A stretch of 64,000 nt of DNA from an uncultured Alphaproteobacteria bacterium (GCA_958296285.1 OY282459.1:1604999-1668998), one strand, 5' to 3'. Shown: positions 11,218-57,368, counted from the stretch's first letter. Notes: generated from the sequence alone by a model not told the origin. Program-made: numbers and translations.

Positions 11218-11304
11218 CCTCGCCGAATCGGGATTTTATCGCATTTTTTGTGATTTCAAAAAACATATTCTCGCTAGAGGAATTGGTCTATAATCGTCAT
11301 TGCC

Positions 11305-39780: not shown

Positions 39781-40155
39781 TCAGCCCCAAAAAGACTTGA
39801 TAAGCAAAGGCAGAATCATCACGACAAGAATCCAAAGAACCGTCTCCACACGCCCCATGCGAACCTCTAAGTTCCCCAACCGTTCATCCATACGCCCCAC
39901 TTGAGCTTCCAAGTTCGTCAGCCGATCCTCCACACGCCCCAACCGATCCTCCACACGCCCCACGCGAGCCTCCACACGCCCCACGCGAGCCTCTATGCTC
40001 ACCGACCGATCATCCAACGAGGAAAGGCGCGTATCCACGCTCCGCTTCCATTCGGCGTCTCTATCTGTCTCAAGAGCGCGAATCGCCGCTGTCGCCTTGT
40101 CGTCAGGGACATTCGCCGCCTTGAAAGCGTCATAAACTTCTACAAGAGACATCAT
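39781..40155 (-). CDS. DUF1640-like coiled-coil membrane protein, paralog 1 (124 aa) with 11-aa/33-bp tandem repeats
   Basis: Conserved N-terminus MMSLVEVYDAFKAANVPDDKATAAIRALET, then RVGRVEARVGRVEDRLGRVEDRL... repeats, then C-terminal TM WILVVMILPLLI. Confidence 0.6.
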   Translation of the reverse strand: MMSLVEVYDAFKAANVPDDKATAAIRALETDRDAEWKRSVDTRLSSLDDRSVSIEARVGRVEARVGRVEDRLGRVEDRLTNLEAQVGRMDERLGNLEVRMGRVETVLWILVVMILPLLIKSFWG

Positions 40156-40206
40156 TCTCCTCCATCATCTATCGTCAAGATTATAGCACATTTTATCGGC
40201 AAAAGC

Positions 40207-40362
40207 TCCTCTAGCAGGGGGCGCGTGGGTGGGTCGCATTTGCTCGCTTCGCGTTGCTTCGCTCGCAAATGCTTTTTTCCCACCCACCCACGCGCTTTCG
40301 GGGGGGATTCCCCCCCGAACCCCCTCTTTTCTTGGGGGGCTAGCCCCCCAAACCCCCCTTAA
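40207..40362. repeat. Composite REP/MITE-like element, copy R5 (module D inverted repeat + hairpin + B palindrome)
   Basis: GGGGGCGCGTGGGTGGGTCGCATTTGCTCGCTTCGCG..CTCGCAAATGC..CCCACCCACCCACGCGC, then TTCGGGGGGGATTCCCCCCCGAA, then CTTGGGGGGCTAGCCCCCCAA. Near-identical to 45829-45965. Confidence 0.7.
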
Positions 40363-40381
40363 CGGGAGCATGTCAAGCCCG

Positions 40382-41680
40382 TCAGCGCCCCGTCGGCAAA
40401 TCCCGAAACGGCTTCGCCTTATCAACCCGAATGTCCGCAGGCATCCCCAAAACACGCTCCGCAACAATGTTCCGCAAAATCTCATCCGTCCCGCCAGCAA
40501 TCCGAAAGCCCGCCGCCCAAATCCACTGCTGCTGAAACGCCGCCCCAAAAGGCGACAACTCCCCATCACTGACAACCCCTGCCATATCCTGCATCTCCAT
40601 CGCGAAAGCGCCAATGTCCTGCATCTTCCGCGCCGAAACAATCTTAATGATGGAACTCTCCGGCCCCGGCGTCTCGCCCTTGGAAAGAGCGGTGAGCGTC
40701 CGCATCTTGGTATATTTCAAGCCCTGACTCTCCGCATACCACTCGGCGATCTTGGCGCGAATGTGCGCGTCTTTGACGGCAGGCCCATTCTCGGTCTCCA
40801 GATCGCGGGCGATCTCCAGCAGATCGCCGGCATCGGCGCTCTCGCCCATGCCGACCGCGAGACGCTCATTCATCAAGGTCGTCAAGGCGACCTTCCAGCC
40901 CTCGCCGACTTCGCCGAGCCTCTGACTGTCAGGAATCCGGACATCATTAAAGAAGACCTCGTTGAAATTGCTGCCTCCCGACATCTGCTTGATCGGACGC
41001 ACCTCCACGCCCGGCGCATGCATATCCAAGAAGAAGAAGGTCAAGCCGCGATGCTTCGGCTGATCAGGATCGGATCGCGCGACAATGATGCCGTAATCGG
41101 AGAAATGCGCGCCCGAAGTCCAAACCTTCTGCCCGTTCAAGATCCAATCGTCCCCGTCTCGCTTGACTCGGCTTCGTATCCCTGCGACATCCGATCCCGC
41201 CGCGGGCTCTGAGAAGAGCTGACACCAGATTTCCTCGCCATAAAGGGCGGGTTTGACGTATCGCGTCAGGGTTTCCTTGTCGGCATAGGCGATGAGGGTT
41301 GGGATGCACATGCCGAGTCCGATTTCAAAATATCCTCGCGGCAGATGATATTTGGCTTCTTCCTGATTGTAGATGACGGATTGTATGGCGGTACCGCCCA
41401 TGCCTCCATAGTCTTTGGGCCAAGTGATGGCGGCGTATCCTGCGGCGGCTTTTTTCTTCTGCCATTTTTTGGCTCTGGCGAGTCCATCGGCTTCGGACTC
41501 TCGGGTTTCGGCGCGCGCGGCTTTGAGATTGTCGGCGTCTTTGGGCTTGGCGTTTTGATTGAGGAAGTCGCGGACTTTTTTACGGAAGGCGGCTTCTTGG
41601 GGTGTGTCGTTGAGGTGCATGATGGTTCTCCTTATGCGACGTTTTTCATTTCTAGGAGTCGGACGAGTCTCTCTTTCCAC
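40382..41680 (-). CDS. Acyl-CoA dehydrogenase family protein
   Basis: 432 aa; ACAD N-terminal/middle/C-terminal domain motifs (..GSDVAGIRSRVKRDGDDWILNGQKVWTSG..). Confidence 0.85.
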   Translation of the reverse strand: MERETRPTPRNEKRRIRRTIMHLNDTPQEAAFRKKVRDFLNQNAKPKDADNLKAARAETRESEADGLARAKKWQKKKAAAGYAAITWPKDYGGMGGTAIQSVIYNQEEAKYHLPRGYFEIGLGMCIPTLIAYADKETLTRYVKPALYGEEIWCQLFSEPAAGSDVAGIRSRVKRDGDDWILNGQKVWTSGAHFSDYGIIVARSDPDQPKHRGLTFFFLDMHAPGVEVRPIKQMSGGSNFNEVFFNDVRIPDSQRLGEVGEGWKVALTTLMNERLAVGMGESADAGDLLEIARDLETENGPAVKDAHIRAKIAEWYAESQGLKYTKMRTLTALSKGETPGPESSIIKIVSARKMQDIGAFAMEMQDMAGVVSDGELSPFGAAFQQQWIWAAGFRIAGGTDEILRNIVAERVLGMPADIRVDKAKPFRDLPTGR

Positions 41681-42753
41681 CTTCGCTGCGCGCCGATGAC
41701 GAGAGAGAGTGTTCTAGCGCGGCGATAGAAGAGTTGGCAATCGGATTCCCATGTGAATCCGATTCCGCCATGGGTTTGGACGTTTTCTTGGGCGGCGAAG
41801 ATGAAGGCGTCTGACGCGCTGATTCTGGCGGTTGCGGCGGCGATGGCGAGGTCGGCGCTTTCTTCTTGGCTTCCGAGCGTCATAGCGGCGTAATAGCAGT
41901 TGGATCGGGCGAGTTGGTTTTTGACGTAGATATTGGCGAGTTTATGTTTGATGGCTTGGAAGGATCCGATGGGTCTGCCGAAAGCGAATCGTTCTCTAGC
42001 GTAAGTTTGGGCCATTTCCAGGGCTGCGTCCGCGCCGCCGAGTTGCTCAAAGGCGAAGAGGACGGCGGATCGGTTGAGGATTCTGTCCATCATTTCTTCG
42101 GCTTTGTCGCCTTCGGCGAGGATTTCGGCGGGCGCGTCGTGGAAGGTGATTGTGGCGTATTTTCGGCTTGGGTCTATTGTTCTGACATTTTGGCGCTTGA
42201 CGTTTGGCGTGTTGGCATCGGCGAGGATGATGACGGCTTGGTCTTTTTTATTTTTGGCGGTTGTGATGACGAAGTTCGCGCTCATTCCGTCGGGGACGGG
42301 CATTTTTGTTCCTGAGAGTTTATGTCCGTCAAAGGCTGTATTTGTGTTGGCGAAGGTTGGCGCGCCGGCTTTTTCGGAGAAGGCGAAGGTTCCGATAGCC
42401 TCGCCTGAGGCGAGTTTAGGGAGCCAATGTTTTTTGGCGTTTTCGTTTTGCGTGGCTTTGAGGGTTTCTGCGGCGACATAGATGCTAGAGGAGAAGGGGA
42501 CGGGTGCGAGCGCGCGTCCGAGTTCTTCTGCGATGACGCAGAGTTCCAGCATATTCATATTGGTTCCGCCGTATTTTTCGGGGATTGCGGCGCCGAGGAG
42601 TCCCATATTGGCGAGTTGGTTCCAGAGTTTGGTGTTGTGCGTTTTGTTGGATTCCAGGATTTCGCGGACTGCCGTGAGCGGGCAATGGTCGGCGAGCATT
42701 TTGCGCGTTTGATCGCGGAGGATTTTTTGGTCGTCTGAGAAGTCTAGGTTCAC
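41632..42753 (-). CDS. Acyl-CoA dehydrogenase family protein (second, adjacent)
   Basis: 373 aa ACAD fold (..YARERFAFGRPIGSFQAIKHKLANIY..). Forms a tandem ACAD pair with the upstream gene. Exact start/overlap uncertain. Confidence 0.82.
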   Translation of the reverse strand: MNLDFSDDQKILRDQTRKMLADHCPLTAVREILESNKTHNTKLWNQLANMGLLGAAIPEKYGGTNMNMLELCVIAEELGRALAPVPFSSSIYVAAETLKATQNENAKKHWLPKLASGEAIGTFAFSEKAGAPTFANTNTAFDGHKLSGTKMPVPDGMSANFVITTAKNKKDQAVIILADANTPNVKRQNVRTIDPSRKYATITFHDAPAEILAEGDKAEEMMDRILNRSAVLFAFEQLGGADAALEMAQTYARERFAFGRPIGSFQAIKHKLANIYVKNQLARSNCYYAAMTLGSQEESADLAIAAATARISASDAFIFAAQENVQTHGGIGFTWESDCQLFYRRARTLSLVIGAQRRWKERLVRLLEMKNVA

Positions 42754-42766
42754 TGTCGGCGTTCTT

Positions 42767-43213
42767 TCAGGCGAGGATTGCGCGGAGCAAGACTCCTGTT
42801 ATGAGGAGCAGGCAGACGGTGTTGAGGATCATATTTGCTCTGCCCATCCATTCCAGCCGTGCCATATGGATTCGGATTTCCCCGATTTCCCTATGCATTT
42901 CGTCTTGGAGTTCATGGATTTTGTTTTCCACTGCTATGATTCGGTCTTCCACTTTTCCGATGCGCTCTTCCACTTTTCTGATGCGCTCTTCCACCACTAT
43001 GATTCGGTCTTCCACTTTTCCGATGCGCTCTTCCATTTTTCCGATGCGTTCTTCCACTTTTCCGATGCGGTCATCCATTTGTCCGATGCGGTCTTCTATT
43101 CGCCGCAGACGTTGTTCGTCTCGGTTGGTTTCCAGGGCTTCTACGGCTGCGGTGGCTTTATCGTCATCCACGTTAGCGGCTTTGAAGGCGTTATAGACTG
43201 CGACAAGGCTCAT
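42767..43213 (-). CDS. DUF1640-like coiled-coil membrane protein, paralog 2 (148 aa) with ~8 copies of a 33-bp repeat
   Basis: MSLVAVYNAFKAANVDDDKATAAVEALET, then EDRIGQMDDRIGKVEERIGKMEERIGKVEDRIIVVEERIRKVEERIGKVEDRIIAVENKI, then TM ILNTVCLLLITGVLLRAILA. Confidence 0.6.
   Translation of the reverse strand: MSLVAVYNAFKAANVDDDKATAAVEALETNRDEQRLRRIEDRIGQMDDRIGKVEERIGKMEERIGKVEDRIIVVEERIRKVEERIGKVEDRIIAVENKIHELQDEMHREIGEIRIHMARLEWMGRANMILNTVCLLLITGVLLRAILA
42925..43110. repeat. 33-bp in-frame tandem repeat array inside DUF1640 paralog 2
   Basis: Plus-strand shadow ORF reads MRSSTFPMRSSTFLMRSSTTMIRSSTFPMRSS... with strict 11-codon periodicity. The DNA shows repeated TTCCACTTTTCCGATGCGCTCTTCCA-type units. 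Confidence 0.65.
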
Positions 43214-43320
43214 GGATTGTCTCCCTGTTTATCTCCCTGTGATATGGGGAGATAGCGAGAGTCTAGCGGTTTTTTCTCTGTCTCGCAAGAGTTCTTGCGA
43301 TGCGGGGGGGCTTGTGGGGA

Positions 43321-43563
43321 TTAGGAGGCGAGATTAATCAGGATAGCGCCTGTCAGGGTTAGATTTGCCATGACAAGAACGATGAGGGTTCCGACCATCC
43401 ATTTCAACAAGACGATATCGGCTTCCACTTTGGCGATGCGGTCTTCCATTCTACGCTTCCATGGCTCGTCTAGGCTGGTTTCTATGGCTTTGACGGCTTC
43501 TGTGGCTTTGGTTTGATCCACATTGGCGGCTCTGAGAGCGTCATAGACTGCGACAAGGCTCAT
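43321..43563 (-). CDS. DUF1640-like membrane protein, paralog 3 (80 aa, repeat-less form)
   Basis: MSLVAVYDALRAANVDQTKATEAVKAIETSLDEPWKRRMEDRIAKVEADIVLLKWMVGTLIVLVMANL. Same N-terminus and upstream region as the gene at 42767-43213. Confidence 0.55.
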   Translation of the reverse strand: MSLVAVYDALRAANVDQTKATEAVKAIETSLDEPWKRRMEDRIAKVEADIVLLKWMVGTLIVLVMANLTLTGAILINLAS

Positions 43564-43670
43564 GGATTGTCTCCCTGTTTCTCTCCCTAGAATACAGCGA
43601 GCCTAGCGGTTTTCTCTCTGTCTCGCAACCATTCTTGCGATGCGGGGGGCGAGGCGGCAGGGTCATCTCG

Positions 43671-44150
43671 CTAGAAGCAGAAGCTAAAATGTCCGTCAAA
43701 ATCAATCTTGAGAGACCCATGCATGATAATGTCCATGCCTACAAGAACGTCAAAGGGGAGATTTCTTCCCGCGTCAAAGTCCAATCCCTCAATTGGAGGA
43801 AAGGGGAAAAGGATTCTGCCCTCCTCTTCCCCGGACGGGTTAATGCCCGTCCCCATAGGCAGCCCGAGAGCGAAGAGATATTGTTGTCTTGGGGTCGTTC
43901 CGGATGCCGAGACCATCTCCATCATGCCCCTGGCTTGCAACCCGACCTCTTCGGCGACTTTTGGAGAGATGCATGTGCGAGAGGCTCCTGTATCCAATAA
44001 GCCGCGATAAGGTCTCATGCCTTTGGGCGGAGTCCGCATAGGAGAGGCGTCTTTTTTTTGGGCGAGGTCAGAAATGATTTTCGGCTCAGAGATAACAACG
44101 GTCAGAATAGCCCCTGTCCCTTTTTGGCAGTTACCCGACAGGCACGACAT
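43671..44150 (-). CDS. Retropepsin-like (clan AA) aspartic protease
   Basis: YRGLLDTGASRTCIS contains the D-T-G-A catalytic motif with hydrophobic-hydrophobic-D-T-G spacing. C-terminal DVLVGMDIIMHGSLKIDF is the flap/dimerisation-type segment. Confidence 0.65.
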   Translation of the reverse strand: MSCLSGNCQKGTGAILTVVISEPKIISDLAQKKDASPMRTPPKGMRPYRGLLDTGASRTCISPKVAEEVGLQARGMMEMVSASGTTPRQQYLFALGLPMGTGINPSGEEEGRILFPFPPIEGLDFDAGRNLPFDVLVGMDIIMHGSLKIDFDGHFSFCF

Positions 44151-44499
44151 GCGAATAGAAGCCTAGGTCTACAGGGACATCGGTGATTTCCTGCACGGAG
44201 AAGATATCGTCATCATAAAGGAGTTTTCCTGTGCGCTCGGCGTCTAGGGCTGTGGAATAAACGGCGATCAGTTTTTCCCCGCGCAGCAGAGCGTGCTGGT
44301 TGCGATACTCCTTGAGAAGTTTGGGGAGCATTTTTTTGAATGCCTCGTAGTTTTTGCGGATTTCTTCGTCTCTATCTTTTCCGAGAGAGGCTATTTTCGC
44401 GTCATCAGACATTTTTGCCCTTTCCGTAGCTTTCTGCAGCTTCCTGTAGAATGTGGCTTTCCCTTGCGCGAGGCATTGTTTGATTTTAGCGCTCTCCAT
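44131..44499 (-). CDS. Hypothetical 122-aa protein co-transcribed upstream of the retropepsin-like protease
   Basis: 20-nt overlap with the downstream gene; charged helical protein with no known motif. Confidence 0.4.
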   Translation of the reverse strand: MESAKIKQCLAQGKATFYRKLQKATERAKMSDDAKIASLGKDRDEEIRKNYEAFKKMLPKLLKEYRNQHALLRGEKLIAVYSTALDAERTGKLLYDDDIFSVQEITDVPVDLGFYSHVVPVG

Positions 44500-44539
44500 A
44501 GATCATGTCCATATGCTTACCCTTCTTGCATGAGATCAA

Positions 44540-44617
44540 GCGAGGCGGGGGGTCGGCGGGCGCAAGCCTGCGAGAAACCGCTCGTGGCGTAGCCTGCCTA
44601 CCCTCTTGCTCGCAGGA
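44540..44617. repeat. REP/MITE-like element, copy R6 (short)
   Basis: GGGGGGTCGGCGGGCGCAAGCCTGCGAGAA...CTCGTGGCGTAGCC...CTCTTGCTCGCAGG. Confidence 0.55.
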
Positions 44618-44618
44618 A

Positions 44619-45680
44619 CTATAATAGCTCTTCTGGCGGTATTCCCGCTTTCAAGAGCATTTTTACAAATTCCATGCCGTTAATCAGAAATACCCCTTCC
44701 TCCTCGGCAAGTTTGCGGCAATCTTCAGTAAAAGCGTTTGCCGAGCTTATAACCCAAGCAGAGAAAGAAGAGTCATCATCTTGTTGATCTTTCCTGTAAT
44801 CACTCACCTGTTTAACAGCCTCTTCGTCGGTTTCCGTGTTTCTTGGGAAAAACTTAACCTGCACGTAAATAACGTGCTTCATTGGTTCAAAAATTGCGAC
44901 AACATCGGCATCACCCGTTTTATCCCCTTTGTTCTGTGGAGGCATATCAACCGCTGTCGCTCCGATTTTCTTTAAGTAAAGAGCAACAAGTTTCTCGAAC
45001 TTTTTGGGATTGAGATTCTTCACTATCCAATTCAGAACCGGGTTGGCCAGCTCTTCAAGCAACTCCTCTGAGAGTCTTGTAGGTCTGCTTTCCCTAAATC
45101 TAGCCAGCGCCTCTTCAATGCTGTCTTTTACATTATTCACGAAGAGATTTACCCATTTACTCTTCATCTTTGCCGTGAGAGCAGCATCTGCATAATCCCA
45201 TTTTGAGATTCCTTTGGCGATGGTGCTCACTTTCCAATAGAACCCAAGATCAAACTGTTTATCGCTTCTATAGAGCTTGCCATCTCGAATCTCCAAACCG
45301 AGATTACTTAGAGCGCTAGACTCAGAAGCGTCCAAATTGGAAATCGGATGTGGGCCCGAAACCAGCTCATAAATTGAAAATTCATGTCCATAGGGACTTG
45401 GAACTAAAACGCAATCTCCCTTTTTGAAATCAGCGAGAAAATACCACAGCCCCCATGCCCATCTTCGGAATTCAACATACGCCTCTTTAATCTTCCTGCG
45501 AAACAACTCTTCTCTCTTGTCCTCGGATTCACTCGCCAAAATCTCGGCAATAAAGGATTGCGTTGAAAGAGATTGATGCCCAAATCCGATGGTCAGAATG
45601 CTGCCTTCATTCAAAAGAGGCACAGATGCCTCTCGCTCATGCTTAATCCTATGTAGCCAATAATTCCTTTCTTCTGCCAT
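44619..45680 (-). CDS. Mrr-type (type IV-like) restriction endonuclease with N-terminal putative modified-DNA-recognition domain
   Basis: C-terminal GDADVVAIFEPMKHVIYVQVKF ... VISSANAFTEDCRKLAEEEGVFLINGMEFVKML resembles the Mrr_cat PD-(D/E)xK core. AT-richer region. Confidence 0.55.
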   Translation of the reverse strand: MAEERNYWLHRIKHEREASVPLLNEGSILTIGFGHQSLSTQSFIAEILASESEDKREELFRRKIKEAYVEFRRWAWGLWYFLADFKKGDCVLVPSPYGHEFSIYELVSGPHPISNLDASESSALSNLGLEIRDGKLYRSDKQFDLGFYWKVSTIAKGISKWDYADAALTAKMKSKWVNLFVNNVKDSIEEALARFRESRPTRLSEELLEELANPVLNWIVKNLNPKKFEKLVALYLKKIGATAVDMPPQNKGDKTGDADVVAIFEPMKHVIYVQVKFFPRNTETDEEAVKQVSDYRKDQQDDDSSFSAWVISSANAFTEDCRKLAEEEGVFLINGMEFVKMLLKAGIPPEELL

Positions 45681-45746
45681 TTTGCCTGCCCTCCAATGTT
45701 TCTAGCGGATATTCATTGTATTATATCCCCCGCTTCTCATTTATTC

Positions 45747-45970
45747 AAGCGAGCAGGGGGGTGCGGGGGGTGCGACACCCCCCGCGAAAAAACAAGGCGG
45801 GCATAGCCCGCCTATGACTCTTGCGAGCAGGGGGCGCGTGGGTGGGTCGCATTTGCTCGCTTCGCGTGCTTCGCTCGCAAATGCTTTTTTCCCACCCACC
45901 CACGCGCTTTCGGGGGGATTCCCCCGAACCCCCTTTTTTCAAGGGGGGCTAGCCCCCCTTGACCCCCCTT
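45747..45970. repeat. Composite REP/MITE-like element, copy R7 (extra GC hairpins + module D + hairpin + B palindrome)
   Basis: GGGGGGTGCGGGGGGTGCGACACCCCCCGCG; GGCGGGCATAGCCCGCC hairpin; CTCTTGCGAGCAGGGGGCGCGTGGGTGGGTCGC...CCCACCCACCCACGCGC (module D); TTCGGGGGGATTCCCCCGAA; CAAGGGGGGCTAGCCCCCCTTG. Confidence 0.7.
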
Positions 45971-45993
45971 TACGGGAGATTCAATCCTAGCCG

Positions 45994-46536
45994 TTAACGA
46001 TCTCGGCGCTCGCGGCGGCGCTCCTGCCACCTCTTACGCCTCTCGCCGATTTCCTCGCTCGCCTCGCCAAGAGCCTCAGCAAGCTCGCGCCGCTCCTCAA
46101 GACTCAAGCCTCCAAGAATATCCACGACATCGCCCCAGCCCCTCCGCAAAACGCGCTCGCCAGAATCCACAACCCGCGATTGCGCCCGATCCAAAATGGC
46201 GGCGGCAGCATCCTTATCAAACGACTCTTGCCGAAGCGCGGCGGCGAGATTCTTCAAAGCGCCCGCTGTCTCACGAGACGCCATATCGCGGAGGTCTCGC
46301 ATCTCGCCGCGCCGCGCCCTGAATTTCTTTCGGAGTTCCTTGCGCGCGTCATCAGGCACGGCATGGACAATGGCGCGCATCTCTCCGCCAAAGCCCCGAT
46401 GGGAGCCGATGCGGAAAGTCGCGTAAGCGCCAACGACAAAAAGATTGATCGCCAACGACACAATGAGTCCGCCAAGAATCCATTTCTGACGGCGTTCTTT
46501 TTTCCTCTGCGGATCTGCGGGATTGATGTCGGTCAT
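45994..46536 (-). CDS. Periplasmic Spy/CpxP-like protein (third gene of ECF sigma operon)
   Basis: N-terminal TM WILGGLIVSLAINLFVVGAYA, then a helical Arg/Glu-rich domain. Confidence 0.45.
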   Translation of the reverse strand: MTDINPADPQRKKERRQKWILGGLIVSLAINLFVVGAYATFRIGSHRGFGGEMRAIVHAVPDDARKELRKKFRARRGEMRDLRDMASRETAGALKNLAAALRQESFDKDAAAAILDRAQSRVVDSGERVLRRGWGDVVDILGGLSLEERRELAEALGEASEEIGERRKRWQERRRERRDR

Positions 46537-46570
46537 GGTTTTTCTCCTTGGTTGAGGGTTTTTGAGGGTT

Positions 46571-46942
46571 TTAGAGTTCCAGCGGGTCTGACGGATTCAG
46601 CGCATCCGCGATGAAACCGACAGGGGATCGCTCCGCCTCGTCAAAGAGGAGGAAGGGGAGATTATCAGGCTCTTCGGCGAAGGGCATCGCGCCGGCTGCC
46701 TGAAGCGCGACTCCGAGCAGAAAAGACGCCGCCAAGAGAGCGCCGCGCGTCCAAAAGTTTGGCGCGGGCGCGCGGAAGCGGAGGGCGGCGAGAGGGGCGG
46801 GAGCGGGGGATTTTTCCGCTTGGACTTGCCTGAGGATTCTCGCCTTGAGCGCCTCCGAAGGGGGCGGGACATTAGACGTCTCTCGCATCAGCGAAGAGAT
46901 GGCGTCATGGGGTCTGTTGGGATTTTTGAGGATTCCGCTCAT
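46571..46942 (-). CDS. Putative anti-sigma factor (single-pass membrane)
   Basis: 123 aa; central TM ALLAASFLLGVALQAAGA. Sits immediately downstream of the ECF sigma gene with a 4-bp gap. Confidence 0.5.
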   Translation of the reverse strand: MSGILKNPNRPHDAISSLMRETSNVPPPSEALKARILRQVQAEKSPAPAPLAALRFRAPAPNFWTRGALLAASFLLGVALQAAGAMPFAEEPDNLPFLLFDEAERSPVGFIADALNPSDPLEL

Positions 46943-46945
46943 GGT

Positions 46946-47554
46946 CTAACCCTTCGCGGCGCGATGAGTCTGCGGCGCTTTTTCAAGATGGAGGATATGT
47001 TGGAGTTTTCGGCGCAGATTTTTTTTCGCGCGCGCGAGGAGGGATTCCACCGCCTCTATGCTGAGATGGAGGGTTCGGGCGATTTGCGCCTGTTTCATCT
47101 CCCAGTCATAGAAGAGAATGACGGCTTCGCGCTGTCGTTCTGGGAGTTCTTGCAGGGCTTTTCGGACGGATTTTTCGCGCTCGCGGATTTCCATTTGGGC
47201 GAGGACGTTTTCGCGGGGATCGGGGATAGCGAGGAGCGCGTCAGGGTCTTCATATCGGCGCTTTCGGGTTCGGTTCGCGTCTCTGCAAAGATTGATGGCG
47301 ATGGCGGAGATCCATATTTTGGGCGTTCCGGCTTTTGGGGAGAAGCTGCGGGCGCTCTTCCAGATTCGGAGGAAACTTTCCTGCGCGATATCTTCGGCGA
47401 GGATGGGGTCGCCTGTCATTCGGCGGGCGAGGGCGTGGATCGGGGCGAGATATCTATTCATCAGCGCGGCATAGGCGTTTTGGTCGCCATGGGCGATGGC
47501 GATCATAAGATTTTCGTCTTGGCTATTTTTCGCTTTTTTTGCGGCGGTCGGCAT
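46946..47554 (-). CDS. RNA polymerase ECF-type sigma-70 family factor
   Basis: Region 2 (IAQESFLRIWKSARSF) and region 4 HTH (QREAVILFYDWEMKQAQIARTLHLSIEAVESLLARAKKNL). Confidence 0.85.
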   Translation of the reverse strand: MPTAAKKAKNSQDENLMIAIAHGDQNAYAALMNRYLAPIHALARRMTGDPILAEDIAQESFLRIWKSARSFSPKAGTPKIWISAIAINLCRDANRTRKRRYEDPDALLAIPDPRENVLAQMEIREREKSVRKALQELPERQREAVILFYDWEMKQAQIARTLHLSIEAVESLLARAKKNLRRKLQHILHLEKAPQTHRAAKG

Positions 47555-47632
47555 AGTTGGTTCCTTTTTTGCCCTATCACTCTTTACTACGCGGGAGGTT
47601 TGAGAATCCGTCTCCTTTTTATTTTTAGGAGA

Positions 47633-50584
47633 TTAGGCTTCTTCGCCGATGATTTCGGCGAAGAGTTGATGGATGTCTTTCTGTCGTTGGGCGAGGGTTT
47701 TATGGAGGGTTTGGAAGTCTTTCATGCCTGCGGCGCTTGCGAGGAGGGCGAGGAGAGATTTGGGCGCGGTGTCGGGGGCGAGGATTCCGTCCAGGCAGAG
47801 ACATAGGATTTGCGTGAGCGTTTCATAGAGTTGATGGGCTTTGATGAGGGATTGGATTTTCTTTTCCGCGAGAAGATCGCGGCGGGCGATTTCTTGGAGC
47901 GTTTGGTTGGGATTTTTTCCGATCAGATCGGGATGCTGATGGGCGTGGATAAGGATGAGATATTGCCGCAAGAAATCGGCGTCTCGGATTCCGCCATATT
48001 GGAAACGGATGTCCCACTGAGATTTTGGCGGATAGGCTTTGGCGATTCTTTTTCGGAGACGGGCGATATCGGCGGCGATTTTTCGCGGATCGCGGGGTTG
48101 GACGAGGATGTCTTTGATTCCGTCATCTATGGTTTTTTTGAGGTTTGGAGCGGCGGCGACAGTTCTCGCGGAGACGAGCGCCATATGCTCCCAAGTTTCG
48201 GCTTCTTGGCGCTGATAGTGGAGGAATTGCTGAAGCGCGAGGGCGACTGGCCCCGCGCGTCCTGACGGACGCAGCCGCATATCCACATCGTAGAGTTTGC
48301 CTGCGGCGCTTGGCGCGGCGCAAGCGGAGACGAAGGCTTGCGCCCATCGGGCATAGGCGGCGGGGGCGGAGGAGTCTTTTGAGGCTTGGGATGTTTTGGG
48401 GTTTTGATAGAGGAAGACGAGGTCTAGATCGGAGGCGTCCGACATGCTTTCCGCGCCCAATCTCCCCAAAGCGAGGATGGCGATATTTTCGGCGCGGAGG
48501 GCGTCATCTTTTCGGCGTTGTTTTTGGCGCTCCTCCATCACGGTCTTTTTGAGGACAGCGATGACGGTTTCGGCGCAATCGGCGTAGGCTTTGCCGGCTT
48601 CTCTAAAATCGCATGTTCGGCGCAAGATGGCGGCGCCTGTTCGGAAGCGCTGTTCTGTGGCGAAGCGCTGGATGGCGGCGATTTTATCTTCTAGGAGGTT
48701 GGCGTTTTCCACTTGGCGGGCGAGGGCGTTTCGCATAGCGTCTTGGGTTGTCAGATCGGCTCTAGCGAGGAGGGCTTCTATCATTTGGGGGTATCGGGCG
48801 AGTTGTTTGGCGAGTCTGGGGGCGGTTCCGCAGATATCGCAGAGGAGTCGGAGGAGCGCGGGCTGGCTTTCAAGGAGGGAGAAGAGTTGGTCGGCGGCGG
48901 GGAGTTGTTTAAGGAATCGGTCAAAGAGGAGGATTGCCTGATCGGGTTCGGCGGTGTCGGCGAGATTTTCTAGGAGTTTGGGCATGAGTCTTGTGAGGCT
49001 TTGGCGGGATTTTGGAGAGTTTGTGGCGGGGAGTCTTGCGGCGTGCCAGCTCTGCGCGGCGCGGACGACATTTTTGGGATTGGCGAAGCCCATAGAGGCG
49101 AGGGTTTGGATGGTTTCGGGGTCTTCGTCCGAGCCTGTGAAGAGGAGCGCTTCGCCGTTTCGGGCGAGGGACGGGGATCGGGCGAAGAGGGCGGCGTAAT
49201 GGTCTGAGACTTTTTGGCGATGGCTGCCGAGATCGGCGGCGAAACCTCTCGCATTGGGATAGTTGAGGAAGAGGGCGAGATGTTTAAGTCCGTCTTCGTC
49301 TTTGGGGATGGCGTGCGTTTGGGCGTCATGGATCATTTGGAGACGATGCTCGGTTCGTCTGAGGAATTGGTATGCGGCGTTCATGTCGCGGGCGGCGCTT
49401 TTGGAGATCCATTGTCGCGCGGTCAGCCGTCCGAGCATGTCGCGCAGTCCGGCGCGGCGGAGTTGCGGATCGCGTCCGCCTGTGATCAGTTGCTGCGTTT
49501 GGACGAAGAATTCTATTTCGCGTATTCCGCCGGCGCCTCTTTTGATGTCCAGTCCAAGGATGGAGGATGCGGCGCTTTTGGATTTGGGCTGCCGCTCCAC
49601 TTGGCGCTTCATGGCATGCATGTCTTCAATGACGGCATAGTCTAGATATTTTCGCCAGACAAAGGGGCGGATCTCGTTGAGGAATTGGCGTCCCTGTTTG
49701 AGGCTTCCGGCGACAGGTCTAGCGCGGATATAGGCGGCGCGCTCCCAATGCTGTCCGAGATTTTGGTAGTAATCCAAGGCGGCGGGGAGCGAAACGGCGG
49801 CGGCGGTGGCGCTGGGATCGGGGCGCAAGCGGAGATCTAAGCGGAAGACATATCCATCTTGAGTTTTTTCCTGAAGGAGTCGCGCCAAGCCTTTGGCGAG
49901 ATCGGGATAGAAGCGCTCAGGCTTGGCGTTTTTTCGGAGAGCGGCGGCTCGGAGAGCGGCGGCTCTAGGATCGTAGAAGAGGACGATATCCACATCGCTG
50001 GAATAATTGAGTTCTCGCGCGCCGAGTTTCCCCATGGCGAGGACGACAAGCCCGCTTTTTTCGGGTTCGTCATTTTTGATTTCGCCCTTTCGCTTGGCGT
50101 CAGCGAGGAGCCATTGGACGGCGCTTTGGATCGCGCGATCGGCGAAGGTTGAGAGCGCGCGCATCACGGCGTCCAGCGTCCATATTTCGGAGATATCGGC
50201 GATGGCGGTCAGAAGCGCGATTTCGGTTTTGGCGCGGCGGAGACCCCGCATCGCCTCATGGATGGTTGAGGCTTTCGCGGCTTGACTGGTGTCGTCTTGG
50301 AGTTTGGCGAGCGTCCGCTCTGGCGTCTTGGCGAGGATCGCCGCGCAGAGATCGGGGTCTCGCTCTATGATTCCCGAAAGGAATTCGGAGTTTCCGAAGA
50401 TTCCGCGCAGCAATTCTCGGATGGACGGCTCATGGAGGAAGGGGGCGAGGGCGTTGTTTTTCTCCGCGAGCCTTTGGAGCATGTCGTTGGCGCGGGTTTC
50501 ATGGAAGGGTTTAGGGAATCGCCCGCCCTTTCCCTTTTTGGCGATGAGCGCGGCGAGATTTTCGCTCTGCGCCATATTTGTCAT
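47633..50584 (-). CDS. glnE: Bifunctional glutamine synthetase adenylyltransferase/adenylyl-removing enzyme
   Basis: 983 aa; two nucleotidyltransferase halves (..GKLGARELNYSSDVDIVLFYD.. and ..LGRLGAESMSDASDLDLVFLY..). Confidence 0.9.
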   Translation of the reverse strand: MTNMAQSENLAALIAKKGKGGRFPKPFHETRANDMLQRLAEKNNALAPFLHEPSIRELLRGIFGNSEFLSGIIERDPDLCAAILAKTPERTLAKLQDDTSQAAKASTIHEAMRGLRRAKTEIALLTAIADISEIWTLDAVMRALSTFADRAIQSAVQWLLADAKRKGEIKNDEPEKSGLVVLAMGKLGARELNYSSDVDIVLFYDPRAAALRAAALRKNAKPERFYPDLAKGLARLLQEKTQDGYVFRLDLRLRPDPSATAAAVSLPAALDYYQNLGQHWERAAYIRARPVAGSLKQGRQFLNEIRPFVWRKYLDYAVIEDMHAMKRQVERQPKSKSAASSILGLDIKRGAGGIREIEFFVQTQQLITGGRDPQLRRAGLRDMLGRLTARQWISKSAARDMNAAYQFLRRTEHRLQMIHDAQTHAIPKDEDGLKHLALFLNYPNARGFAADLGSHRQKVSDHYAALFARSPSLARNGEALLFTGSDEDPETIQTLASMGFANPKNVVRAAQSWHAARLPATNSPKSRQSLTRLMPKLLENLADTAEPDQAILLFDRFLKQLPAADQLFSLLESQPALLRLLCDICGTAPRLAKQLARYPQMIEALLARADLTTQDAMRNALARQVENANLLEDKIAAIQRFATEQRFRTGAAILRRTCDFREAGKAYADCAETVIAVLKKTVMEERQKQRRKDDALRAENIAILALGRLGAESMSDASDLDLVFLYQNPKTSQASKDSSAPAAYARWAQAFVSACAAPSAAGKLYDVDMRLRPSGRAGPVALALQQFLHYQRQEAETWEHMALVSARTVAAAPNLKKTIDDGIKDILVQPRDPRKIAADIARLRKRIAKAYPPKSQWDIRFQYGGIRDADFLRQYLILIHAHQHPDLIGKNPNQTLQEIARRDLLAEKKIQSLIKAHQLYETLTQILCLCLDGILAPDTAPKSLLALLASAAGMKDFQTLHKTLAQRQKDIHQLFAEIIGEEA

Positions 50585-50617
50585 CTTGTCATAGAGAGGG
50601 TTGTCATAGAGGAGCGT

Positions 50618-50791
50618 TTATGCGCCTGCGGCTTTTTTGAGCTGCGCCGAAGGCTTAAAGCGGAGGGTTTTAGAAACTTTGATTTGGATGGCTTCGCCCG
50701 TTTTCGGGTTTCGTCCCATTCTGGCGGCGCGATGGGCGATGGTGATTCCTCCGCCTTTGGAGACTTGCCGCGCGAAATCGGATTTGCTCAT
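50618..50791 (-). CDS. Short HU/IHF-family DNA-binding protein (57 aa, apparently N-terminally truncated); below the 60-aa ORF-track cutoff
   Basis: Reverse-complement translation MSKSDFARQVSKGGGITIAHRAARMGRNPKTGEAIQIKVSKTLRFKPSAQLKKAAGA contains the HU beta-arm signature RxARxGRNPxTGExIxI. An RBS GGGGAAACGAA precedes the ATG, and an in-frame TAG lies upstream. Confidence 0.45.
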   Translation of the reverse strand: MSKSDFARQVSKGGGITIAHRAARMGRNPKTGEAIQIKVSKTLRFKPSAQLKKAAGA

Positions 50792-50825
50792 TTCGTTTCC
50801 CCATTTTGCGTGGTTCCCCTATGTG

Positions 50826-51293
50826 TCATATTTTTCTTGATTTCGCAAGGATTGATGGTTTTTTTCGGTTTTTCGATTTTTTGGCGCGCCTGACGAAACG
50901 GAAGAAAACGGCGCTCCCAAAGATGAGGAGAAAAATCGGCGCGCTCCAGAGCGGGATTGTCGCGCCTGTGATTGGAGGTTTCAGGAGGATTGCTTCGCCA
51001 TATCGTCTGACGAGGAAGGCGAGGATTTGTTTTTCGGATTCTCCTCGCGCGATTTTTTTTCGTATGACTCTGCGGAGGTCAATAGCGAGGGGCGCTTCGG
51101 ATTGGGCGAGCGGCTGTCCTTGACAGACGAGACATTGGAGTTTGGCGATGATGTTTCGGGCGGTTTTTTCTTTTTCGGCGTTTGAGAGCGGCGCTTCGGC
51201 GCGGAGATTTTGGCGAGGATCGGGGGCGAGGGCGAGCGCGAGGGCGCTCGTCATGGCGATGGCGATTGGGAGAAATCGGGCGTTTTTTGTCAT
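50826..51293 (-). CDS. ccmH: Cytochrome c-type biogenesis protein CcmH/CycL
   Basis: LQCLVCQGQPLAQSEAPLAIDLR (LRCxxCQ heme-handling motif), signal/TM N-terminus. Start placed at MTKNARF (51293), which overlaps the ccmF stop. Confidence 0.8.
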   Translation of the reverse strand: MTKNARFLPIAIAMTSALALALAPDPRQNLRAEAPLSNAEKEKTARNIIAKLQCLVCQGQPLAQSEAPLAIDLRRVIRKKIARGESEKQILAFLVRRYGEAILLKPPITGATIPLWSAPIFLLIFGSAVFFRFVRRAKKSKNRKKPSILAKSRKI

Positions 51294-53191
51294 GGGGCGC
51301 GCCTGTGTTTTTTTCTGACGGCGGCGGCGAAGCCGCCGGCGGTCATAAGGATCGCGCCCAGCCATATGAGGGGCGCGAGGGGATTGAGATAAAGTTGGAT
51401 TTTTCTAGCCTCGCCCTTCCCTTTCGTGCCGAGAATGGCATGGAGATCGGCGAGCGGGTTCCACAATGTGGCGATAGCGGCTTCTTGGGTTATGGTTTCG
51501 CGGGCGATATAGTTTCGGGTTTCGGGGGCGAGAGACGCGATGCGCTCCCCATTTCGGCTGACATGGATTTCGGCGCGCCATGCGATATGGTCTTGTTCTT
51601 GGACGGGTTGGATATTTTTCAAGACGATCTCATATCCTGCGAAGCGGGTTTGTTGATTTGGGGCGAGATTGGCGATTTTCTGTCGCTGCGCGGCGCTTGT
51701 GGCGACAGCGCCGAGGATGAAGATTCCGAATCCGGCATGGGCGAGGGTCATTGGGATTCTCATTTTTCTCATAGGCGGGGGGTCGTCTAGGATTCTGCTG
51801 ATCGCGCCGGCGAGGATCCAGATTCCGAATCCCGCGCCGATTGCCGGGATGACGGTTTCGGGCGCGGCGAAGATTCCGACAAGTGTCGCGGCGGCGAGGG
51901 CGGCGAAGGCGGCGGCGGTCAGTCTCTGCAGAGCGCCGAGAGCGTCCGCTTTTTTCCAAGAGAGGTAGGGCGCGATGGGCATTAAGATGAGGATGGGGAT
52001 CATCAGCGGGAGGAAGGCGCGTTCAAAATAGGGCGGTCCTACGGAGATTCGCTCAATGCCGAGCGATTGGAGGATCGCGGGATAGATTGTTCCGATGAAG
52101 ATTGTCGCGCATCCGCATAGGAGGAAGAGGGCGTGGATAGAGATTGCGGTTTCGCGGCTGACGGCGGCGAAGTTGGTTTTGTTGCGGCTGTCGGCGAGTT
52201 TCTGCCACCTCGCGGACAGCGTTGCGAGCGCGCCGCAGAGGGCGGCGGCGAGGATTGCGAGGATGAAGGCTCCGCGGGCGGGGTCTTCGGCGAAATTATG
52301 GACGGAGATGAGGATTCCGGATCGCGTCAAGAATGTTCCGAAGACGCTGAAGGCGAAGGTAAGGATTGCGAGGCTTATTGTGAGGAAGAGGGCTGTGTGG
52401 TTTCTTTCGGTCATCATGCTCGCGTGGATGAGGGCTGTGGCGAGGAGCCAAGGCATGAGGGCGGCGTTTTCCACTGGGTCCCAGAACCAGAATCCTCCCC
52501 ATCCGAGTTCGCGATATGCCCACCAAGCGCCGAGGGCGATTCCTGCTGTGAGGAGCGCCCAAGTGATTTGGGCGCAGGATCGGATTGCGCGGATGCAGGG
52601 TTGGATGGCGTTTGTGTCGCCTGTCCAGAGGAGGGCGACGGCGTAGGAGAAGATGATGGAGGATCCGACATATCCTGCGTAGAGGATAGGGGGATGGATT
52701 GCGAGGGCGGGGTCTTGGAGGATGGGGTTGAGTCCGAGTCCTTGGAGAGGCGCGGGGTTGAGTCGGAGGAAGGGGTTTGAGGTTAGGATTGTGAAGGCGA
52801 GGAAGGTTGTGATGATTGCGGCTTGGATGGCGAGGGTTTTGATGGCGAGGTTTGGGTTTTCTTGATTTTTTCTGAATGCGGGGCTAGCGAAGATGGTGAG
52901 GAAGAGGATCCAGAGGATCATGGATCCTTCGTGGTTTCCCCAGAGGGCGGCGATTTTATAGGGGATGGGTTTTGTGGAGTGGGAGTGGAGGGTGACGATT
53001 TTGACGGAGAAATCGGATTGGATGAAGGCGCAGATGAGGGTGAGGGCGGCGGCGGTGATGAGGGTTAGTTGGGCGATTTGGATTTTTTGGGCGATTTGGA
53101 GTGGGGGATTTTTTGTGGCGCAGAGGATGATTTGCGCGATGGCGAGCGCGGTTGCGAGGGTTAGGGTAAAATGTCCGATTTCGGTGATCAT
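51290..53191 (-). CDS. ccmF: Cytochrome c-type biogenesis heme lyase subunit CcmF/CycK
   Basis: 633 aa polytopic membrane protein with the CcmF WWD-domain region (..GWGGFWFWDPVENAALMPWL..). Confidence 0.9.
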   Translation of the reverse strand: MITEIGHFTLTLATALAIAQIILCATKNPPLQIAQKIQIAQLTLITAAALTLICAFIQSDFSVKIVTLHSHSTKPIPYKIAALWGNHEGSMILWILFLTIFASPAFRKNQENPNLAIKTLAIQAAIITTFLAFTILTSNPFLRLNPAPLQGLGLNPILQDPALAIHPPILYAGYVGSSIIFSYAVALLWTGDTNAIQPCIRAIRSCAQITWALLTAGIALGAWWAYRELGWGGFWFWDPVENAALMPWLLATALIHASMMTERNHTALFLTISLAILTFAFSVFGTFLTRSGILISVHNFAEDPARGAFILAILAAALCGALATLSARWQKLADSRNKTNFAAVSRETAISIHALFLLCGCATIFIGTIYPAILQSLGIERISVGPPYFERAFLPLMIPILILMPIAPYLSWKKADALGALQRLTAAAFAALAAATLVGIFAAPETVIPAIGAGFGIWILAGAISRILDDPPPMRKMRIPMTLAHAGFGIFILGAVATSAAQRQKIANLAPNQQTRFAGYEIVLKNIQPVQEQDHIAWRAEIHVSRNGERIASLAPETRNYIARETITQEAAIATLWNPLADLHAILGTKGKGEARKIQLYLNPLAPLIWLGAILMTAGGFAAAVRKKHRRAP

Positions 53192-53225
53192 GGTTGTGTT
53201 TTGGGGCTATTGGGTTTTGAAGTAA

Positions 53226-53495
53226 AGGGGCGGCGAGCCGCCGCGGGCATCTTTGTCGCTGCCGCGACAGGCATCTTTTTCATAGACAGGCATTTTGGAT
53301 TTGCCCCAGGGGGAACTAAAGCATAGAAGCTGAAGGTGAAGGGGGGTCAAGGGGGGCTTGCCCCCCTTGAAAAACCAAGCGGGCGAAGCCCGCTATAGTC
53401 GGCGGGCGTGGCGCAACGAAGCAAGCGAGGCGAGCGTAGCGAGACGAGATTGCGAGAAGCCCGCCGACCCCCCTGCATCGCGTGAGCTCTTGCGT
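53226..53495. repeat. Composite REP/MITE-like element, copy R8 (modules A-B-hairpin-C-TIR)
   Basis: Module A with an internal 21-bp duplication (GTCGCTGCCGCGACAGGCATC); CAAGGGGGGCTTGCCCCCCTTG; GCGGGCGAAGCCCGC; GTCGGCGGGCGTGGCGCAACGAAGC...GCCCGCCGACCCCCCTGCATCGCGTGAGCTCTTGCG. Confidence 0.7.
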
Positions 53496-53551
53496 TATTG
53501 CCGAAACAGAAAAAAGCCTTTACAATCCATGCAACCGCGAGGAGATGAATC

Positions 53552-53809
53552 ATGAGTCTTGTAGCAGTCTATGACGCCCTCAAAGAGGCGAAAGTCAGCG
53601 ATCACAAAGCCACCGCCGCCATAGAAGCGCTGGAAACAAGCCTTGATGAGCCGTGGAAGCGGCGCATAGAAGAGCGTCTTACCAAAATAGAAATCTCTAT
53701 GGAAGCGCGTTTCGTTCGCCTTGAATGGATGTGCAGAGTGAATATGATTCTCATAAGCGTGTGTCTTGCCTTGCTGGTCGGCGTTCTGCTCCGCGCGATC
53801 CTCGCTTAA
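53552..53809 (+). CDS. DUF1640-like membrane protein, paralog 4 (85 aa)
   Basis: MSLVAVYDALKEAKVSDHKATAAIEALETSLDEPWKRRIEERLTKIE...RLEWMCRVNMILISVCLALLVGVLLRAILA. Embedded between repeat copies R8 and R9. Confidence 0.6.
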   Translation: MSLVAVYDALKEAKVSDHKATAAIEALETSLDEPWKRRIEERLTKIEISMEARFVRLEWMCRVNMILISVCLALLVGVLLRAILA

Positions 53810-53950
53810 AAGAGCTCTTGGCGTTGGGGGGTCGGCGGGCGTGGCGCAACGAAGCGGGCGCAGCGCGTAGCCACTCGTGGCGTAGCGCAAGCCCGCGAGA
53901 AGCCACTCGTGGCGTAGCCCGCCGACCCCCCCTGCTCGCAAGAGTCTTGA
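53810..53950. repeat. REP/MITE-like element, copy R9 with clear terminal inverted repeats
   Basis: AGAGCTCTTGGCGTTGGGGGGTCGGCGGGC ... GCCCGCCGACCCCCCCTGCTCGCAAGAGTCTTG. Confidence 0.7.
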
Positions 53951-55451: not shown

Positions 55452-55545
55452 TTGGGGGGGTCGGCGGGCTTCCTCGCAGGCTCGCGCTACGCGCTTCGCT
55501 CGCAAGTGCTTTTTCCTACCCTACCCCCGCGCTTCGCGCTGCTTG
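55452..55545. repeat. REP/MITE-like element, copy R10 (overlaps 3-prime end of the methyltransferase-HNH gene)
   Basis: TTGGGGGGGTCGGCGGGCTTCCTCGCAGGCTCGCGCTACGCGCTTCGCTCGCAAG... Confidence 0.55.
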
Positions 55546-56990: not shown

Positions 56991-57104
56991 AGCCCGTTCT
57001 CTATCGGCGAATCAGCAGTGATGTTCATTTTAAAGCTAGAAAATCTTTAAAGCTAGGAAATCTTGAAATTAGAGGGAAGGCTAAAAAACAATTCTAGGCG
57101 CACG

Positions 57105-57368
57105 CGATGCAGGGGTGTCGGCGGGCTTTCTGCTTACAAGAGCTCTTGCGAACAGGGGGGTCGGCGGGCTTCTCGCGGGCTTGCGCTACGCGCTACGCCC
57201 GCTTCGTTGCGCCACGCCCGCCGACTATAGCGGGCTTCGCCCGCTTGGTTTTTCTTGGGGGGCTAGCCCCCCAAACCCCCCTTCACCTTCAGCTTCTATG
57301 CGTTAGTTCCCCTGCGGCAAAAACACATGCCTATCCATGAAAAAGATGCCTGTCGCGGCAGCGACCTC
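57105..57368. repeat. Composite REP/MITE-like element, copy R11 (TIR-C-hairpin-B-A reverse)
   Basis: CAAGAGCTCTTGCGAACAGGGGGGTCGGCGGGC...GCCACGCCCGCCGAC; GCGGGCTTCGCCCGC; CTTGGGGGGCTAGCCCCCCAA; then the reverse-complement module A, as in copy R1. Confidence 0.7.

Follow-up and report, generated by a model that had tools for sequence, protein, structure and literature searches.

Bdr proteins of Borrelia ('Borrelia direct repeat', KID-repeat, PFam80) combine a conserved N-terminus with a variable number of 11-residue (33 bp) repeats and a C-terminal anchor. They are multi-copy, repeat-containing and inner-membrane associated, and their function is undiscovered (PMC10016077, PMC2525819, PMC4370689). 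The DUF1640 family (Pfam PF07798) includes the mitochondrial proteins MCUR1 and CCDC90B, yeast Fmp32 and prokaryotic proteins. This DUF1640/CCDC90-like family was reportedly also treated by Adlakha et al. in 2019 (Structure 27:464). In the description by the Lupas/Hartmann group (Hartmann et al. 2016, PMC4786415), its members are head-neck-stalk-anchor proteins, and a β-layer neck opens the stalk. Here, a family of small proteins was analysed which is represented by four genes in a stretch of 64,000 nucleotides, referred to as the window, from an uncultured Alphaproteobacteria bacterium (GCA_958296285.1 OY282459.1:1604999-1668998). Judged by profile comparison, the family branches off, with considerable divergence, within the superfamily of the bacterial DUF1640/CCDC90-like and the Borrelia Bdr proteins, and Bdr proteins are its closest described analogue. 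An initial annotation had proposed a DUF1640-like family whose 33-bp repeats slip to vary surface or membrane proteins; the finding is real, and it is more ordinary than that.

An open reading frame (ORF) listing confirmed the four genes at 39781-40155 (c1), 42767-43213 (c2) and 43321-43563 (c3) on the minus strand and at 53552-53809 (c4) on the plus strand. The start of c1 is most likely its second ATG (40152), as in the gene call of a sister strain. Two such strains were compared with the genome of the window (strain A, 1,733,000 bp), in which c2, c3 and c4 have exact matches: strain B (ENA ERZ19489113, 1,723,605 bp), where the same 123-amino-acid c1 gene is called at L004:13062-13433, and strain C (ERZ19489054, with shorter contigs). 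So defined, c1 (39781-40152) encodes 123 amino acids, with a head, eight heptads and an SFWG-type anchor, and c2 encodes 148 amino acids, with a head, about nine heptads and an LEWM...RAILA anchor. The products of c3 (80 amino acids, LLKWM...LAS anchor) and c4 (85 amino acids, LEWM...RAILA anchor) have no repeat array. Alignment also confirmed the shared N-terminus, which reads MSLV[AE]VY[DN]A..A..V....KAT.A..A.ET in all four copies; 19 of the 21 invariant columns are found within the first 42 residues (MSLV.VY.A...A.V...KAT.A..A.ET..D....R....R).

When the whole window was searched in six frames (tblastn), each copy recovered the other three with E values from 1e-13 to 1e-29, and no fifth copy was found below 1e-3 with any of them. 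Since the only matches below 1e-3 were mutual, the window holds exactly four copies. Over the first 29 codons of the four window copies, the proportion of synonymous differences (pS) was 0.65 and that of nonsynonymous differences (pN) 0.18, with pN/pS of about 0.27. Near-saturated synonymous change together with low nonsynonymous change indicates that selection acting at the protein level has kept the head constant, and that recent homogenisation of the DNA has not. The head is under purifying selection, and the four genes are real coding paralogs. The tandem duplication proposed for c2 and c3 was borne out as well, since they are tandem neighbours that share, 350 nt apart, a stretch of 189 nt (leader plus the 5' part of the coding region) with 77% identity; despite their similar leaders and 5' ends, their 3' modules are different. 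The copies had been said to differ only in the number of repeats, which is incorrect, as the neck segments also differ and three anchor types are present.

The repeat arrays of c1 and c2 were characterized with Tandem Repeats Finder and by listing the units one by one. In c2, the array (42926-43096, minus strand) has a period of 21 bp with 7.6 copies and 82% matches, and a higher-order duplication of 63 bp with 2.7 copies (42926/42938-43096), whereas in c1 (39838-40016, minus strand) the 21-bp period is repeated 3.4 times, in addition to periods of 42 and 63 bp. The in-frame units are E[ED]RIGKV, about nine times in c2, and E[AD]R[VL]GRV, about eight times in c1, with I/V at the core (a, d) positions of the heptads in c2 and V/L in c1. 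An exact repeat of 39 nt occurs in c2 at an offset of 63 nt, and the longest one in c1 is 25 nt. The long array annotated in c2 is therefore real, but its unit is not the 33 bp (11 residues) claimed; both methods ruled out that periodicity for the window copies and gave 21 bp (7 residues) with a higher order of 63 bp. Hendecads were found in other paralogs of the genome, for example P0011 and P0017.

As annotated, each copy ends in a membrane anchor. Hydropathy analysis gave one hydrophobic window per protein, 0-2 residues from the C-terminus, and a highly charged soluble part. The anchor shared by c2 and c4 is LEWMxRxNMIL...LLRAILA, that of c3 is of a second type, LLKWMVG...NLTLTGAILINLAS (LLKWMVG...LAS), and that of c1 of a third, ...VVMILPLLIKSFWG (...LLIKSFWG). 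The AlphaFold2 model of the c2 monomer, obtained from an alignment of 38 sequences, has a mean predicted local distance difference test score of 96.4 and consists of a helix (residues 3-12), a turn (13-16) and a second, unbroken helix (17-147) in which the stalk runs into the hydrophobic end. Hydropathy of the family proteins detected no N-terminal signal peptide or hydrophobic segment. With no signal peptide and an anchor that forms the very end of the chain, the stalk is most likely cytoplasmic, and head and stalk would both face the cytoplasm in a tail-anchored inner-membrane protein. The c2 model and the hydropathy profiles thus reproduce the DUF1640-style layout of a head, a continuous coiled-coil stalk and one C-terminal transmembrane (TM) helix with no signal peptide. 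Isoleucine or valine at both core positions of a coiled coil is compatible with trimers, parallel homotrimers being the assembly associated with DUF1640 proteins, and this composition suggests that the stalk forms an oligomer, possibly a trimer.

The family extends beyond the window. A search with c4 of 5.8 billion clustered proteins gave 17 clusters, all from contigs of strains A, B and C. Each 1.73-Mb genome carries at least 11 such paralogs of 74-148 amino acids at dispersed sites, and the family spans about three near-identical strains plus one related metagenome-assembled genome (MAG). The one match among GTDB species representatives was an unclassified alphaproteobacterial MAG at 49% identity, and no relatives were found in JGI metagenomes and IMG/VR. 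The head of about 30 residues, MSLVAVYDALKEAKVSDHKATAAVEALE, is nearly invariant among the paralogs (MSLVAVYDALKEAKVSDHKA[TA]AA[VI]EALE). Their stalks are built of heptads, hendecads (DKRFAEMDAKM, NERIADLRGEM) or 18-residue units, and three to four anchor classes occur per genome. Those of strain B are small genes that occur, alone or in tandem, at many places on the chromosome among housekeeping genes (GST/MgtE, thiolase/porin, NMO, amidohydrolase). Searching 1.84 billion representative proteins with the family profile retrieved 387 proteins at E≤1e-3, mostly of 90-130 amino acids and matched end to end. These wider relatives follow the design M..M..EVYDAL..AGV.EDKARAAAEAL, then tandem repeats, then LLKWM.G and a TM helix; where they lie on annotated plasmids (Rhizobium, Methylosinus), all the surrounding genes encode hypothetical proteins.

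Homology to DUF1640 was evaluated by comparing the family profile, built from 18 members, with a set of seven bona fide PF07798-carrying proteins, collected with the distant relative P0050 as query. The two profiles aligned with a probability of 97.6% and an E value of 4.4e-12 (hhalign), collinear over 116 columns through head, stalk, KWM motif and anchor. P0050 acts as a bridge: the family profile matches it at 8.9e-9, and it passes PF07798 with 34.1 bits against the gathering score of 33.5 bits (profile positions 1-92). The best paralog in this respect, P0016, reaches 25.3 bits (positions 73-169), below that score. Jointly with two others, PF07798 is the Pfam family most often matched by the 18 members (6 of them, best E value 1.6e-5). 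It is absent among the matches listed for c1, c3 and c4 (E≤10) and among the best 25 for c2. Given the full-length profile match, the label 'DUF1640-like' of the initial annotation is right as remote homology, although no window copy matches PF07798 itself. That the family is uncharacterised also stands, as its members are not covered by any family of Pfam, NCBIfam or PADLOC, or by any PHROG that carries a name.

Like DUF1640 proteins, the members are small, with a head motif of the 'aGv..e.A.a..eAl' type, often a tandem-repeat stalk, a W-M/K-W-M motif and one C-terminal TM helix. Both lack a signal peptide, and the stalk of the mitochondrial proteins faces the matrix, the equivalent of the bacterial cytoplasm. 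Unlike DUF1640, the window copies use heptad arrays, with c3 and c4 almost stalkless, and within one small genome their family has grown to 11 or more paralogs, whose anchors fall into three to four classes.

The link to Bdr was found when a wider relative was searched against annotated plasmids, where it matched Borrelia bdr genes (tblastn). The family profile aligned with B. recurrentis Bdr with a probability of 94% and an E value of 1.3e-7 (hhalign), and the PF07798 set aligned with the same protein over its full length (89%, 2e-6). As in Bdr, there are multi-copy paralogs of small size in which a conserved N-terminal part precedes a centre made of in-frame repeats in variable number and the protein ends in a hydrophobic anchor, and each Bdr gene has its own promoter, to which a promoter-like leader corresponds here. 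The genes of the window are, however, chromosomal, alphaproteobacterial and adjacent to repetitive extragenic palindromic (REP)-like elements, whereas bdr genes are borne by plasmids or cp32 prophages and are said to be unique to Borrelia. In addition, the window arrays have 7-residue units with no match to the KID-repeat family of Pfam, while the Bdr repeats contain KID/KIE; PF02524 (KID repeat) matched none of the four window copies and 2 of the 38 wider relatives.

Diversification was followed by comparing the strains. An alignment of strain B with the window over the 10.5 kb spanning c1 to c3 shows 63 differences (99.4% identity), and around c4 the strains are 96-98% identical. The c2 protein has 148 residues in three strains, c4 has 85 residues in A, B and C with 2-3 single nucleotide polymorphisms, and in A and B the c1 DNA and the c3 protein are identical. 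Since the strains are very close, this constancy of length is a weak test. Six of the 63 differences between A and B are concentrated in 42906-43036; the c2 array itself contains five of them, with the sixth immediately outside, and some of those in the array make one unit resemble another (cf. P0006), which is compatible with intra-array conversion.

Elsewhere, the family evolves rapidly, and another paralog locus did change in length. Loci L003 of strain B and L009 of strain C are syntenic, and they share 4.2 kb at 99.2% identity, a stretch that runs from the upstream region through the leader into the gene and takes in its first 210 nt. The gene encodes 112 amino acids in B and 130 in C, where it contains a 54-bp in-frame tandem duplication. 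Over its last 120 nt or so, the C allele differs from the B allele by about 25% but almost matches the 3' end of paralog P0013, so that this locus records an indel together with a conversion. The variation in repeat number that the initial annotation expected among strains was thus found at this locus and not in the window genes, which are unchanged in three (c2, c4) or two (c1, c3) close strains. Paralog P0003 of strain B equals P0010 of strain A over the first 72 residues or so and then continues into another anchor class. Abutting the stop codon of P0003 is a headless ORF of 61 codons (L005:3333-3518) that consists of a stalk and an LAS-type anchor (…NIEERIGELRADMNAQFENLRADIRQLQWMVGVLIILMLANLTMTGAILLKLAS); its anchor class differs from that of P0003, and it appears to be a remnant of module replacement. 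These comparisons show that repeats are gained and lost and modules exchanged by recombination in the family, and its evolution is read as Bdr-like, not as programmed switching.

The explanation we favour, with reasonable though not high confidence, is that the family consists of tail-anchored scaffolds of the inner membrane that face the cytoplasm, with recombination as the source of their different stalk lengths and anchors. The head of about 30 residues would be a short helix that packs onto the first part of the long one, followed by a stalk formed as a continuous coiled coil, its length set by tandem heptad (21 bp), hendecad (33 bp) or 18-residue repeats, and by one TM helix at the very C-terminus as the anchor. 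The proteins would be inserted post-translationally, leaving head and stalk in the cytoplasm, and would oligomerise through the stalk, perhaps as trimers. A common head could then be shown at paralog-specific distances from the membrane and on different anchors, and the proteins may serve as membrane-tethered scaffolds or spacers for a common partner. Diversity would come from unequal recombination between in-frame repeats and from gene conversion or module exchange between paralogs, as an evolutionary process and not a programmed switch. The copies, each with a promoter-like leader and a Shine-Dalgarno sequence of its own, and most of them beside REP elements, would occupy permissive intergenic sites.

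Several observations weigh against this explanation. No window copy reaches any curated Pfam or NCBIfam cut-off, and the matches obtained are to generic coiled-coil families. Coiled-coil and TM composition inflates profile scores; therefore, the homology claim is based mainly on the collinearity of head motif, stalk, KWM motif and anchor. The β-layer neck motif, searched as the regular expression [aliphatic]-A-T-K-[polar]-[DE], was found in none of the four window copies and none of 21 narrow-family proteins, whereas 4 of the 7 PF07798-carrying proteins have it, as do 9 of 146 distant relatives; the missing neck and the sub-threshold Pfam scores both set the window copies apart from DUF1640. 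With Bdr, the alignment of the family profile is limited to stalk and anchor, the head not being alignable. The topology derives from a hydropathy heuristic alone, the long-helix AlphaFold2 model is monomeric and silent on the oligomeric state, and a Foldseek search of the PDB with the c2 model gave nothing at E≤0.001. Finally, the scaffold role would be an analogy with MCUR1 and CCDC90B and no more than that, because the functions of bacterial DUF1640 and of Bdr are not established.

Other assignments were tried and rejected. Direct comparison with Pfam, NCBIfam and PADLOC gave only sub-threshold coiled-coil noise (SMC, tropomyosin, DUF16, DUF7310, JetC and others). NF048001, 'GTA head formation protein', was matched by 9 of 38 members with a best E value of 4e-5, far below its cut-off of 50 bits, and was also taken as coiled-coil noise. 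Phrog_12015, phrog_9415 and phrog_6701 are families of unknown function that match the repeats and the anchor only. A PDB search with the family profile returned generic coiled coils only, with 6h9l, which we take to come from the CCDC90B study, at an E value of 0.28.

The initial annotation had all four copies embedded in elements of the REP type. This is correct for c4, which has a REP-like element on both sides, upstream at 53335-53490 and downstream at 53826-53945 as a long hairpin (GGGGGGTCGGCGGGC...GCCCGCCGACCCCCCC), but c1 has one upstream only (40213-40368, with G6-N4-C6 hairpins and a GCGTGGGTGGG...CCCACCCACGC stem), and c2 and c3 retain only a REP tail of about 20 nt (CCCCCCGCATCGCAAGA). 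The element is a G/C-rich palindrome with G6-N4-C6 hairpins and a long stem that has two alternative sequences, the one found at c1 or GTCGGCGGGC...GCCCGCCGAC; the modules also include a GCGGGC-loop-GCCCGC hairpin and frequently end in CCCCCC(T)GC(A)TCGC. Nine clusters were found in the window, at about 24.6, 27.9, 28.7, 38.4, 40.2, 45.8, 53.35, 53.83 and 57.1 kb. They are confined to 24599-57312, which leaves the first 24 kb and the final 6.7 kb free of such clusters, and six of them do not adjoin a family gene. In strain B, most other paralogs have a REP element within about 150 nt upstream and/or downstream. Because the background is only about one REP per 7 kb, the association with family genes looks real, as judged by this estimate and not by a formal test.

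A short leader of conserved sequence, (A)AGATTGCSR-N17-T(G)CTAYA...GGAGA...ATG, separates the REP element from the start codon in each copy and is also conserved upstream of the paralogs as AAGATTGCGG-N17-TGCTAYA...GGAGA...ATG. It has the look of a sigma-70-like promoter, one per copy and combined with a Shine-Dalgarno sequence, from which each gene may be expressed. In c1, a putative extended -10-like motif, TGCTATAAT, lies at 40180-40188 (minus strand), 27 nt upstream of the ATG and followed by a GGAGG Shine-Dalgarno sequence; the same motif recurs upstream of paralogs. The c2 leader (43214-43320, minus strand) comprises the REP tail CCCCCCCGCATCGCAAGAAC/TCTTGCGA, TTGCGA-N17-TAGACT and a GGGAG Shine-Dalgarno sequence, and is duplicated upstream of c3, where the homologous leader lies at 43564-43650 (minus strand). 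For c4, the candidate promoter TTGCCG-N17-TACAAT (53498-53526, plus strand) is a match of a consensus scanner only. The G/C runs sit in the REP elements, upstream of the -35 region. The REP tail that precedes the c3 leader contains a run of C at 43650 that is 1 nt shorter than in strain B, which is the sole indel in the 10.5 kb compared.

Among the alternatives, an unlikely one is that these are membrane-active small proteins of mobile origin, XhlA-like or type-I-toxin-like, possibly forming part of defence islets. XhlA, the haemolysin-like protein of the PBSX prophage, is likewise short, with a coiled coil and then a C-terminal TM helix, and its family PF10779 was matched by c2 with 26.8 bits and by c1 with 20.8 bits. 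PHROG matches annotated as 'hemolysin' or of unknown function (phrog_12015, 1.6e-12; phrog_9415, 8.7e-9) point the same way, and several copies adjoin HSDR_N, Mrr_cat, Endonuclease_7 and methyltransferase, SocA_Panacea, ThsB_TIR or TnpB genes. However, these matches lie in the repetitive coiled coil and below the cut-offs (34.7 bits for PF10779), no PADLOC model gave a meaningful match, and IMG/VR holds no relatives. XhlA has no conserved head, and a conserved soluble head under purifying selection is not typical of small pore-forming toxins. The window genes have no lysis-cassette or prophage context, the copies being single genes between housekeeping genes. Since the neighbouring defence genes vary by locus, there is no conserved operon partner either.

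Among the genes around the copies, an HSDR_N-domain gene adjoins c1. About 1 kb from c3, a gene with an Mrr_cat domain (44619-45680, minus strand) forms a strain-variable defence islet; this Mrr-type gene for a restriction-endonuclease-like protein (44553-45656 of the window) is replaced in strain B by an unrelated gene of 339 amino acids (L004:7635-8654), with flanks 98-99% identical. Next to c4, a restriction-modification-like pair at 53951-55382 (minus strand) encodes a His-Me finger/Endonuclease VII nuclease (207 amino acids) and an N6/N4 DNA methyltransferase (272 amino acids). The pair, c4 and two REP elements are inserted into the cytochrome c maturation cluster, between ccmF and ccmE, an arrangement conserved in all three strains. 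A further ORF (55521-56990, minus strand) encodes an N6/N4 methyltransferase-HNH-like protein of 489 amino acids on a 1.65-kb segment (55500-57155) that is bounded on one side by the 57.1-kb REP cluster and on the other by a fragment of a REP at 55460. This segment is not at the same position in B and C, which carry a similar gene a few kb away in opposite orientation.

Outside the window, the islet downstream of the variable paralog contains SocA_Panacea and DUF1508 genes in strain B (L003:4340-7160) and other small genes in strain C (L009:4394-5950), with ThsB_TIR and PDDEXK_11 genes nearby after it; the gene set thereby changes from a Panacea type to a Thoeris ThsB type, and the left breakpoint of the islet falls inside the family gene. 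Directly upstream of paralog P0004 in strain B, a TnpB-like gene (OrfB_IS605/Cas12f1-like_TNB, 395 amino acids; L006:1535-2896, ptg000057c) is followed by three repeats of 36-41 nt, 66-67 nt apart with spacers of about 30 nt, which have the look of a mini-array of clustered regularly interspaced short palindromic repeats (CRISPR).

No conserved partner gene was found across the family loci compared, so there is no functional clue at the operon level, and the recurrence of variable, defence-type neighbours is a lead only. It is conceivable, at rather long odds, that the near-identical 5' halves, the interchangeable stalk-anchor modules and the flanking REP elements act as portable homology driving the exchange of the strain-variable defence islets next to them, or that the proteins are cassette-diversified inner-membrane sensors or tethers working with defence genes. 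If either were true, the family would be a chromosomal, alphaproteobacterial counterpart of Borrelia Bdr with a definable role.

The proposal of the initial annotation, namely surface or envelope coiled-coil proteins that vary rapidly in length or phase by replication slippage, as a contingency locus or for antigenic variation, is considered improbable. It would agree with the in-frame tandem repeats and their exact repeats of 25-39 nt, with the clustering of strain differences in the c2 array, with the 54-bp polymorphism between close strains and with a multi-copy, variable repertoire in which 5 of about 12 clusters are strain-specific. However, short, near-perfect tracts whose copy number alters the reading frame or the spacing of the promoter, the hallmark of phase-variable contingency loci, are missing: the units are 21 bp long, in frame and about 82% alike, so that on/off frameshifts are impossible. 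There is no N-terminal signal or hydrophobic segment that would carry the stalk out of its most likely cytoplasmic location, the lengths of all four window copies are equal in the strains compared, and Bdr proteins, the closest analogues, belong to the inner membrane. The window proteins are therefore probably not switchable surface proteins.

That the ORFs are by-products of REP/MITE-like (miniature inverted-repeat transposable element) sequences and tandem repeats, as spurious or decaying frames, has hardly any probability: c1 is missing from the protein collection, opposite-strand ORFs cross the arrays, REPs flank many copies and a headless remnant exists, but the low pN/pS of the head with near-saturated synonymous change, the conservation of frame and architecture in hundreds of distant relatives, the Shine-Dalgarno sequences and promoter-like leaders, and intact genes in three strains all contradict it.

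Two other features of the window were recorded. An alphaproteobacterial two-piece (permuted) tmRNA at 11262-11639 (plus strand) scored 219 bits against Rfam RF01849, with the tag peptide ANDNYADARLAA, and it places the organism in the class Alphaproteobacteria; it is the sole Rfam match of the window, none being found in or near the family genes. At 3-9749 (minus strand), a stop-free frame of at least 3249 codons, running off the start of the window and made of about seven tandem units of 1.2-1.5 kb with 60-80% identity, probably encodes a giant repetitive surface or adhesin-like protein.

The family is a lineage-specific, expanded branch of a known head-stalk-anchor kind and reveals no new mechanism by itself. 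No function is known for the DUF1640-type proteins of bacteria or for Bdr, widespread or abundant though they are, and among the mitochondrial relatives, MCUR1 and CCDC90B are scaffolds of medical relevance with an unclear ancestral role. Evolution of the Bdr type, by repeat gain and loss and conversion between paralogs, is not confined to Borrelia plasmids. With at least 11 copies, an invariant head, graded stalks and several anchor classes, the genome offers a natural 'length series', which could help to find the binding partner of the head and to test whether stalk length is relevant.

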